Shown here in pieces: positions 3,600-55,445 of a stretch of DNA of 64,000 nucleotides (positions within the stretch are counted from its first letter, which is position 1; each line of letters opens with the position of its first letter). The translations under genes and the position numbers were made by a program. Origin of the DNA: Octopus vulgaris (taxonomy: Eukaryota); NCBI GenBank assembly GCA_951406725.2, contig OX597836.1:6014001-6078000 (forward strand), written 5' to 3'. The notes beneath the pieces are model-generated. The model was given only the letters and a program-made list of their open reading frames with translations, did not search any database and had not been told where the DNA came from.

Positions 3600-3846
3600 G
3601 TATTTGATTATTCTTGTCTTTGTATTTGTGTTTGTTTCGACGCACCAATTGACAACTGTTGCCGGTTTGTTTACGTCTATGAGAAAAATAGAACCAATAG
3701 TTTCTAGGACCAGGCTTTAGATAAAGAAGGACCAGACTTTAGATAAAGACAGAGTGCTTCAATCGATTTGTTCCGTTAAAACCCTTTCAAGGCGGTGCCC
3801 CAGCATGGCCGGCAGTCAAATGATTGCAACAAGTAAAGAGATAAAA
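3600..3846 (+). mobile_element. SINE family E, 3' half
   Basis: Tail GGCGGTGCCCCAGCATGGCCGGCAGTCAAATGATTGCAACAAGTAAAGAG shared with other E copies. Confidence 0.75.
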
Positions 3847-3876
3847 GCGAAGCAGATAAACATTAAAATCAACTCA

Positions 3877-4072
3877 GTTCTATATTTAAGAGATGAGGAA
3901 TTATGTACGTTATTCACATTATTTACATTCGACGAATATTTGTCCTCATCTTCTTTGTTCTTAACACAACGTTTCGGTTGATATACCCTCCAGCCTTCAT
4001 CAGGTGTCTTGGAAAAATTTCGAACCTGGATTCTCATTCCTAAGGTATTTTTCGATGTTGTTGCTGTTGTTG

Positions 4073-4141
<69 letters not shown>

Positions 4142-4220
4142 TCGCTGCCTAGAATCGAACTCTGAATCTTGGGGTTAGTAGCCCGTGCTCTTAACCACTA
4201 CGTCAAATGCTCGTGGGCAT
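3877..4220 (-). mobile_element. Family F: tRNA-headed element with (AAT)n spacer and hammerhead-like Penelope-type tail (full length, colinear)
   Basis: Minus strand: tRNA-like head (GACGTAGTGGTTAAGAGC...GAGTTCGATTCT), (AAT)n, CTGATGA...GAAACGTT core, terminus CCTCATCTCTTAAATATAGAAC; 4 copies in window. Confidence 0.85.
3963..4008 (-). ncRNA. Minimal type-I hammerhead ribozyme motif (family F)
   Basis: GACAC CTGATGA A GGCTGG AGGGTATA TCAACC GAAAC GTT GTGTT: stem I GACAC/GTGTT, stem II with one mismatch in this copy, palindromic AACGTT stem III. Confidence 0.7.
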
Positions 4221-4682: not shown

Positions 4683-4860
4683 CGGCGAGCTGGCAGAATC
4701 ATTAGCTTGCCGCACAAAATGCATAACAGCATTTTGTCCATCTTCACGTTCTGAGTTCAGCTTCCGTGCGGGGGTTCGACCTTGCGCTTCATAGTTTCGG
4801 AGCACTGGGCTCTAAGTAATCGACTAACCTCTTTAATGAAATTGCGGCCATCGAACCACA
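4683..4860 (+). mobile_element. SINE family A, degenerate
   Basis: GGCGAGCTGGCAGAATCATTAGC head, GTTCTGAGTTCA B-box region. Confidence 0.8.
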
Positions 4861-4901
4861 ACTTGACGCTAATATTTGGAATACCATATAAGGCTACAAG
4901 T

Positions 4902-19260: not shown

Positions 19261-19561
19261 TACATTATTTACATTTGACGAATATTTGTCCTCCTCTTGT
19301 TTGTTCTTAACACAACGTTTCGACTGACATACCCTCCAGCATTCATCAGGTGTCCTGGGGAAATTTCGAACCTGAGTTTTTATTCTTAAGGCATTTTTCG
19401 ATGTTATTATTATTATTATTATTACTGTCATTATTCAGGTCACTGCCTGGAATCGACCTCTGGATCTTGTGGTTAGTAGCCCGCGCTCTTAAGCACTGCG
19501 CCATATGCCCGAGGGCATAAGTAAATAATGTACATAATTCCTCATCCCTTAAATATAGAAC
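19261..19561 (-). mobile_element. Family F copy with inverted 3' terminus
   Basis: Body (-) 19261-19518 with hammerhead 19309-19354 and tRNA head; terminal 43 nt in + orientation at 19519-19561. Confidence 0.85.
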
Positions 19562-22299: not shown

Positions 22300-22497
22300 G
22301 TTCTATATTTAAGAGACGAGGAATTGTCTACATTATTTACATTATTTACATTTGACGGATATTTGTCCTCATCTTGTTTGTTGTTAACACAACGTTTCAG
22401 CTGATATACCCTCCAGCCTTCATCATGGGCATATGGCGTAGTGCTTAAGTGCGCGGGCTACTAACCCCAAGATTCCGAATTCGATACCAGGCAGTGA

Positions 22498-22572
<75 letters not shown>

Positions 22573-22646
22573 CAGCAACAACAAAAATTACCTTAGGAAT
22601 GAGAACCCAGATTCGAAATTTCCCCAAGACACCTGATGAAGGCTGG
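22300..22646. mobile_element. Family F copy with 5' inversion splitting the hammerhead
   Basis: 3' end on - strand 22300-22425; head, (AAT)n and CCTGATGAAGGCTGG on + strand 22426-22646; TGATGAAGGCTGG present in both halves. Confidence 0.88.
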
Positions 22647-44539: not shown

Positions 44540-44900
44540 CTTCAAGGCACATGTTACCTGGTTTGGGCCCACTGCGTGCCATCTTGGCCAGGTGTCTTCT
44601 ATTATAGCCTCGGACAAACCAAAGCGTTGTGAGTGGATTTGGTAGACTGAAACTGAAAGAAGTCCGTCGTATATATGTGTGTGTGGTTGTGTGTGTGTGT
44701 GTATGTGTGTGTGTTTGTCTACCACCACCAATCAGCAATCGGTGTTGGTTTGTCTACGTCACTGTAAATTAGCGCTTCGGCAAAAGCGAACCAATAAAAT
44801 ATGTAGCATAGCAAGGCTTTAAAATGGTAATAAAACGTATTGATGTTGATATATTCGACTAAAAATCCTTCAAGGTGGTGCCCCAGCATGGCCGCTGTCT
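44540..44900 (+). mobile_element. SINE family E, older copy
   Basis: CCCACTGCGTGCCATCTTGGCCAGG...GTGAGTGGATTTGGTAGAC...GCCCCAGCATGGCCGC. Confidence 0.82.
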
Positions 44901-44967: not shown

Positions 44968-45139
44968 AAAAATACCTTATGAATGAGGACCCAGGGTTGG
45001 GTTCAAAATTCCACCAGGACACCTGATGAAGGATGGAGAATAAATCAGCCAAAATGTTGTGTTAACAACAAATCGGCTGATCCGTCCAATGTAAATAATG
45101 TAAATAATGCACAGAATTCCTCATCTCAAAATATAGAAC
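44968..45139 (+). mobile_element. Family F 3' part (headless, decayed hammerhead)
   Basis: GACAC CTGATGA AGGATGG..TCAGCC AAAAT GTT GTGTT ... AATATAGAAC. Confidence 0.8.
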
Positions 45140-55395: not shown

Positions 55396-55445
55396 TTTCA
55401 CGCAGCCGTTCGTCAAATAGTTGTCTGATGAACGGCTACGTGAAA
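55396..55445. repeat. ~24-bp imperfect inverted repeat containing CTGATGA-ACG-GCTA-CGT-GAAA
   Basis: TTTCACGCAGCCGTTCGTCAAATA / TGTCTGATGAACGGCTACGTGAAA, next to (TA)n. Confidence 0.7.

Follow-up and report, generated by a model that had tools for sequence, protein, structure and literature searches.

A SINE-like hammerhead repeat of Octopus vulgaris is very probably the pseudo-long terminal repeat of a Penelope/Poseidon-type element

The window considered here is a stretch of 64,000 nucleotides (nt) of Octopus vulgaris DNA (GCA_951406725.2, contig OX597836.1, positions 6,014,001 to 6,078,000), taken from a microsatellite-rich host genome of 2.8 Gb. No long non-repetitive open reading frame (ORF) was found within the window, and the subject of this report is a dispersed repeat, family F, that is present in it at four loci. 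The initial annotation had described these loci as copies of a short interspersed nuclear element (SINE) in which a tRNA-like head was fused, through an (AAT)n spacer, to a tail carrying a hammerhead ribozyme of Penelope type, and all four were matched on re-examination. Family F is very probably the pseudo-long terminal repeat (pLTR) of an autonomous Penelope/Poseidon-type Penelope-like element (PLE) of the same genome.

Copy 1 (3877..4218, minus strand) is a complete solo pLTR that begins at the first base of the head and comprises head, spacer and the hammerhead-bearing N-terminus of the ORF. Its tRNA-like head (4137..4218) starts with a short GC palindrome and has its A box at 4195-4205 and its B box at 4151-4162; the spacer (4061..4136), whose presence was confirmed, is an (AAT)n/(AAC)n tract of variable length. 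The N-terminal coding sequence of the PLE ORF (3877..4037, likely start codon 4035-4037) runs on in frame into the reverse transcriptase (RT) ORF in full-length copies. It contains a minimal type I hammerhead (3963..4008, predicted cut between 3968 and 3967) with a stem I of 5 bp, one bulged base, a stem II of 6 bp and a loopless palindromic stem III, in which the core is intact and one pair of stem II is mismatched. The last part of copy 1 (3877..3915) is the PLE 'tail' extension of about 35 nt that lies between two clusters of 3' ends, the putative RT start sites; all these features are on the minus strand. Copies 2 and 3, each previously taken for a single unit, are two-armed inverted insertions. 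In copy 2 the long arm (19516 to 19261, minus strand) begins at the head's first base, stops at the inner 3'-end cluster and includes a hammerhead (19309-19354) with an intact core and a broken first pair of stem II, and the short inverted arm (19517..19561, plus strand) carries the tail extension. Copy 3 has one arm from position +6 of the head to the middle of stem II (22427..22646, plus strand) and an inverted one that begins in the hammerhead core and runs to the outer 3' end (22425 to 22300, minus strand), so that its hammerhead is divided between the two. Copy 4 (44968..45139, plus strand) is diverged and consists of the tail only, with 73% identity to the reference tail and a hammerhead (45018-45063) in which the GAAA box is broken. 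The head with both boxes is present in copies 1-3, as had been claimed, and the hammerhead motif occurs in all four copies, its perfect consensus version in none. The terminus that had been regarded as fixed is one of the two 3'-end clusters, and ends extend a few nt beyond AAATATAGAAC. Copies 1 and 4 are directly adjoined by the 3' part of a different abundant short repeat (3660-3850 and 44760-44900).

The relation of family F to an autonomous element was established from both ends of the ORF. The Penelope/Poseidon RT motif, used as a genome-wide search pattern, matched 122 times, against none in the control. Of the first 30 loci, 14 have the head in sense orientation at a distance of about 960-1180 nt downstream of the RT motif, where it begins about 20 nt past the stop of the GIY-YIG ORF and is followed by spacer and tail, and eight more of the 30 have sense pieces of head or tail nearer in. 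A motif from the 5' end of the ORF gave 135 matches (at most one mismatch), and 20 of the 26 loci examined join directly to the tail, which reads in frame into the PLE ORF; a full-length homologue at 58% identity bears the same hammerhead-encoded peptide at its N-terminus. Since the head trails the ORF stop and the tail opens the ORF in frame, the unit is read as a pLTR and the 'tail' as coding sequence. The proposed Penelope affinity of the tail is borne out; an origin from the 3' untranslated region (UTR) of a long interspersed nuclear element (LINE) is ruled out, the tail being N-terminal coding sequence of the PLE. The supposed fusion of a head onto a Penelope tail to form a SINE falls away, as the autonomous PLE itself holds head, spacer and tail. 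The repeating unit is predicted to consist of the tRNA-like head, (AAT)n and an ORF of about 830 aa starting across the hammerhead, in n tandem copies.

The partner carries a PLE-type RT together with a GIY-YIG endonuclease at the C-terminus in one ORF, which was assembled from overlapping copies because every copy read is broken. Its RT matches RVT_1 of Pfam, and the RT homologues carry RVT_1, PF28514 and PF26215; the Pfam GIY-YIG profile gave no match to the partner protein, and the endonuclease was assigned by alignment to an Anolis protein (E 1e-17; N-terminus E 6e-23) whose own N-terminus agrees with the RNA of the Anolis Poseidon element PAc as printed in supplementary figure 1 of PMC11167929. 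A Zn-finger linker between RT and endonuclease sets Neptune/Nematis apart from Penelope/Poseidon, and the partner linker has no CxxC pair, unlike that of a host family with ORFs of 781 aa. In an RT tree of 30 rows with two outgroups, for which homologues were picked by similarity and the other 94 listed were left out, the partner groups with 26 homologues, including that of Anolis, apart from two host Zn-linker PLEs (support 100/100). The partner copies read are 77-95% identical to each other, with no intact ORF among them, and the family looks inactive since all are broken. No close structure for the protein was found in the PDB and no relatives in viral contigs. Its closest RT relatives (P0001-P0016) are 54-68% identical and mostly unnamed, and the P0013 cluster, from a barnacle, hints at horizontal transfer between marine invertebrates. 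Families recovered by a GIY-YIG search, mainly the young 781-aa Zn-linker PLE, were rejected as partners, with no tail at the ORF end in the 54 stretches examined; L103 holds a separate family F insertion. The 781-aa family (L037, L061-L064) has many intact ORFs with RT, Zn-linker and GIY-YIG, an upstream repeat-rich ORF, and no hammerhead found adjoining its ORF end.

Exact 20-mers from the hammerhead and from the head occur 6,614 and 3,917 times genome-wide, with none for the reversed controls, and copy counts are therefore far beyond chance; with about 6% divergence per site, the true total is higher, probably tens of thousands of arms. The linkage of head and tail that had been claimed holds for 79 of 91 consecutive head-pattern arms on C1 (the first 91 of the 3,917 matches, one locus supplying two arms and two loci resembling duplicates) and for 25 of the 30 top head matches. 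When 30 loci were anchored on the hammerhead instead, 17 extended to the head, six ended in the spacer and seven within the tail. The spacer is a frequent target of later LINE insertions in other copies of the family. Two kinds of LINE-like 3' end, both (AAT)n-terminated, were found inserted in it (L007, L030, L121 and L335; L012 and L013), which we take to be RTE-like and Dong/R4-like.

The hammerhead is of the minimal, PLE kind with a palindromic stem III, as annotated: the family majority has the CUGANGA/GAAA core, a base between 9 and 10.1, the G10.1-C11.1 pair, the palindromic 15.2-16.2 and a short stem I. Of 110 tails, 52 retain an intact core, and the one common variant, found in 23, falls at the free N7 position. 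Decay is near-neutral, with 94% conservation in core and stems and 92% outside. Stem covariation is absent within the family (two double changes in 110 tails and 13 pairs) and appears across families at 7 of 11 pairs (none of 500 shuffles on score), in an alignment of nine related rows with a hand-drawn structure. Isolated hammerhead copies of the window fold no better than shuffled sequences. As the ribozyme of PAc depended on protein and insertion in vitro could do without it (PMC11167929), the description of family F as a 'self-cleaving SINE' must be called unproven. Other hammerhead-like motifs were seen at 55425-55445 of the window (plus strand) and, with a longer palindromic stem III, near other PLE families (L034, L106, L110).

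The 3' ends and the inverted arms of the copies have the signatures of PLE insertion, as expected of the mobilisation by a PLE RT that had been proposed. Of the 3' ends of 190 arms, the inner cluster holds 107 and the outer one, about 35 nt away, holds 69; the other 14 lie elsewhere, and no end was seen beyond the outer cluster. A few inner-cluster calls are internal deletions, and the extension may overshoot by 1-3 nt. The RT of PAc was found to start in vitro between ORF nt +111 and +118, the tail being what separates one start site from a second (PMC11167929). The outer cluster of family F spans the codons aligned to R37-I40 of the Anolis protein, and 56 of its 69 ends lie on codons that the protein alignment pairs with PAc nt +112 to +120; the inner cluster is matched to the second PAc start site by the spacing of 30-40 nt. 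An inverted partner accompanies 49 of the 91 arms, and in 38 measurable inverted pairs the extension is on exactly one arm in 32, on neither in six and on both in none. PLE insertions are described as partial tandems of the pLTR with an inverted 5' arm and a tail of 30-40 nt on one end, and all three features are found in family F. Twin priming of the L1 type is ruled out as a general rule for the inversions, many loci having the same sequence on both arms. Target-site repeats of 7-11 nt were seen in three of 20 candidate non-inverted solos, several of which proved inverted or linked, against 3.4% in the control.

The 5' ends were mapped in the 91 head-matching arms, with the first G of the head palindrome as position 0. 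They lie at +10 to +33 in 24 arms, at -2 to +9 in 48, at -29 to -3 in four, at -99 to -30 in two and further upstream in 13, which gives stop rates per nt of 0.087 in the 12-nt peak, 0.004 upstream and 0.012 downstream; the peak is thus 20 times the upstream rate (p ~1e-28) and seven times the downstream rate. The 20-mer counts agree (head 3,917, just upstream 947, ORF end 813), within the limit that the three 20-mers differ in decay. Within the peak there are sub-peaks at -1/0 and at +6/+7, the latter corresponding to the first base of a mature tRNA, and ends at -1 include a few bases that are complementary to the head, which is what fold-back of the cDNA end would be expected to leave. The A box starts 13 nt after position 0, a spacing typical for type 2 promoters of RNA polymerase III (Pol III). 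Out of eight ORF-5' copies with an upstream head, three are partial tandems and five start at or in the head; RNA initiated at the head could therefore include the ORF.

Taken as a whole, a mechanism of transcription starting at the head and of internal RT priming, which together would yield thousands of solo, probably dead-end pLTRs, is considered likely. Transcription of master copies would begin at the head's first bases. The PLE protein would nick AT-rich DNA and would start reverse transcription at two internal sites, which lie downstream of the hammerhead and about 35 nt from each other. Where it uses those close to the RNA's 5' end, a cDNA of about 300 nt ending at the transcription start would result, a SINE-like solo pLTR. 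Head-to-head dimers would arise through fold-back at the palindromic 5' end or a switch of template there.

Two other explanations have to be weighed against this mechanism, both improbable in our judgement. According to the first, family F includes a true PLE-dependent SINE, in which solo or 3' pLTR copies are transcribed by Pol III through the flank to the first T-run and the solo RNA is re-copied in trans by the PLE protein, the short form being a lineage of its own. The A and B boxes, the 5' peak at the head, the excess of the head 20-mer over its two neighbours and the absence of T4 runs from head and tail would all suit such a SINE, and non-autonomous PLE derivatives are known. The comparison of solo with ORF-linked copies points in a different direction. 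Heads (112 solo, 44 linked) and tails (82 solo, 36 linked) share one common majority sequence, and no solo-specific allele was found in 88 allele tests, a sample that small subfamilies could escape; the sole significant differences are G-to-A changes enriched in the ORF-linked copies, and the tail's two length variants of 9 nt are each present in linked copies. This shared majority, the shared length variants and the lack of solo-specific alleles argue for solos as by-products of a master element. Divergence is alike in the two groups (4-5%); the tail medians (0.038 for solos and 0.049 for linked copies, p=0.02) count for the SINE, as slightly younger solos fit some extra solo amplification, a difference to be read with the fact that most solo arms were chosen by the exact head 20-mer. 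Furthermore, all 190 3' ends lie at or before the outer RT site, and the solos, ending by about +125 on PAc ORF numbering, are without downstream sequence that PAc needs: RNA up to ORF nt +172 is required, as shown for PAc in vitro (PMC11167929). Falling short of that point, solo copies are probably dead ends that are not re-mobilised. The autonomous element, moreover, already has head and spacer, which leaves no SINE-forming fusion to explain. Family F therefore resembles a SINE at its 5' end, where a tRNA-derived head with A and B boxes is present, yet it departs from SINEs in two respects: the head is not distinct from that of the autonomous partner, which has head and spacer as well as the tail, and the 112 solo and 44 linked heads show no separate lineage with diagnostic subfamilies. 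Nor is it arranged as a retrozyme, in head-to-tail tandem units each with a hammerhead, the solos being dispersed or head-to-head.

The second explanation is that of plain 5' truncation of RNA polymerase II (Pol II) or read-through tandem transcripts, the head being a passive tRNA-SINE remnant in the 3' UTR of the PLE and the ends clustering through RT stall or fold-back at the GC hairpin. The start of the head does fold into a hairpin, which at -9.7 kcal/mol is the strongest of the 30-nt windows there, and Drosophila Penelope is described as having a TATA-less, LINE-like internal promoter (PMC2377424). The ends, however, are located in the hairpin's loop and 5' arm, whereas a stall would be expected at its 3' foot, and a window of similar strength at +20 yields no comparable peak. 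The origin of the head bears on the same question. The head is a degenerate tRNA: aligned to host tRNA-Thr(AGT) genes, the one isotype compared, it scored 50 and 55 against maxima of 45 and 48 in 300 shuffles. It scored 54-66 against the head of another resident tRNA-SINE, which is in keeping with a remnant, and capture of a SINE head is plausible on account of this better match. That SINE (L340-L345, 2,192 pattern matches) is abundant, forms two subfamilies, has the closest match to the family F head and contains a central domain that is presumably CORE/Deu-like. At least 13 tRNA-Thr(AGT) genes form a cluster in the host genome (G000:C1:140.99-141.28 Mb; L338, L339).

A comparison with other PLEs gives further points on both sides. 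L346, from a metagenome contig (noted at 2031-2096 and 4822-4887), is an intact tandem Poseidon-type PLE with a 901-aa protein (40% identity, outside the clade of family F) and is unrelated to family F at the DNA level, yet its pLTR has tRNA-like A and B boxes about 70 nt past the stop, followed by CCA and AAT repeats, and its hammerhead lies over the ORF start, in the same place as in family F, and folds well (z -3.1). The L346 boxes were first noticed by eye and the A/B-box pattern was written afterwards; this pattern has a chance rate of 0.001 per kb and gave one stray match (L401), and Rfam did not call the L346 element a tRNA. L346 has two T4 runs and no T5 run in 2,795 nt (P 0.049), and in the 2,567 nt of the family F majority sequence T never occurs four or more times in a row (shuffle P 0.007), with G4 runs likewise absent; three other host PLE families have nine, eight and one T4 runs. 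Three Poseidon-type PLEs (L347, L348, L383) have T-rich, intron-like pLTR tracts ending just before the hammerhead, no A/B boxes and nine, ten and six T4 runs in their ORFs, and constitute a natural contrast group of Pol II type. This group and the A/B boxes of L346 speak against plain truncation, and L346 favours the mechanism with a start at the head. L358, which has no A/B boxes yet a single T4 run, fits plain truncation.

With regard to transcription by Pol III itself, the analysis slightly favours the view that Pol III would start the RNA of the element from the A and B boxes, and transcription of the whole ORF by Pol III is possible although somewhat doubtful. Profile scans count against the tRNA-like head and the hammerhead: neither Rfam tRNA nor Rfam hammerhead matched copy 3 or six other loci, and for the window neither was among the 150 of 410 matches listed; ARAGORN found no tRNA. 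The lack of T4 runs is weakly significant when codons are kept (P 0.03-0.055), and outside PLE loci of similar T content (n=12; from the 34 of 83 loci with long matches) have a mean of 2.0 T4 per kb, with zero in four. The last result led T4 depletion to be downgraded from strong proof, and the lack of TTTT may be said to support Pol III use weakly. A stall of the RT at the hairpin may add to the 5' peak. RNA data aligned to a tandem junction (three raw runs and one contig set) cover head, tail and ORF end equally on both strands, and no peak of transcription start or end was seen in these data, which are unstranded and come from diverged copies; the same holds for a read peak at the hammerhead cleavage site.

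Family F shares parts of its organization with several known systems. Common to it and to Anolis Poseidon, as described in PMC11167929, are a single ORF with RT and C-terminal GIY-YIG domains and no Zn-finger linker, a hammerhead over the ORF start, partial-tandem pLTRs with inverted 5' arms, and a tail of 30-40 nt with 3' ends at homologous codons. Unlike Penelope and Poseidon as described there, its pLTR includes an (AAT)n spacer besides tRNA-like A and B boxes, sharply starting solo pLTRs are far more numerous than copies with the ORF, and no intron-like T-rich tract is present. The schistosome elements Sm-alpha and Sj-alpha (PMC2770079, PMC8490949) are likewise tRNA-derived, SINE-like and of high copy number, with a type I hammerhead, but theirs is canonical and they are described as SINE-like or satellite; these descriptions name no autonomous partner with the same head, whereas the partner of family F is identified and holds the whole unit. 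Animal non-LTR retrozymes (PMC7229834; bioRxiv 10.64898/2026.07.22.740005) are also short, non-coding, hammerhead-bearing, pLTR-related and PLE-dependent. They are described as head-to-tail tandem arrays giving circular RNAs, whereas the copies of family F are scattered, most of them head-to-head, terminate where RT starts and bear a tRNA-like head. The TRIMp3 elements Cassandra, Helenus and Ajax (PMC10886601) have a Pol III promoter derived from a small RNA in the terminal repeat, for which insertion of a SINE into the repeat was proposed as origin; they are short non-autonomous LTR elements, a length that Pol III is argued to limit, and the family F repeat belongs to a protein-coding PLE of 2.9 kb.

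A tRNA-SINE with a hammerhead is already represented by Sm-alpha and Sj-alpha, but no tRNA-headed autonomous PLE was met in the literature searched, as far as those sources go. The full-text literature searched gave no report of a tRNA-headed PLE pLTR or of a tRNA SINE mobilised by a PLE; the family may have an entry in Repbase, Dfam or SINEBase, possibly as a SINE. Three octopus tRNA retroposons were reportedly described by Ohshima and Okada in 1994. Family F is a real, high-copy feature, read here as the tRNA-derived pLTR of a Penelope/Poseidon PLE whose solo ends are abundant.

Irrespective of Pol III, the solo end of a PLE can pass for a high-copy 'tRNA SINE' and is open to misfiling by SINE annotators. 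The copies also give genome-scale support in vivo, in an animal only distantly related, to the sites of internal RT start that were measured in vitro for Anolis Poseidon. Re-examination of Sm-alpha and other hammerhead SINEs for a partner with the same head is also suggested. If Pol III does drive the element, a protein-coding retrotransposon would depend on a polymerase thought fit for short non-coding elements alone, and its translation would pose a problem, the RNA being without a cap. In its broadest and tentative form, which we rate as possible but not favoured, the proposal is that a subset of autonomous Penelope/Poseidon PLEs, in two unrelated lineages (that of this genome and L346), would have swapped the Pol II or intron-type pLTR for a tRNA-derived Pol III promoter, purged T-runs from an ORF of 2.8 kb and been translated from uncapped Pol III RNA, with internal RT priming mass-producing SINE look-alikes. 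Such look-alikes may be what 'hammerhead SINEs' of the Sm-alpha type are, and may represent a direct route to SINEs.
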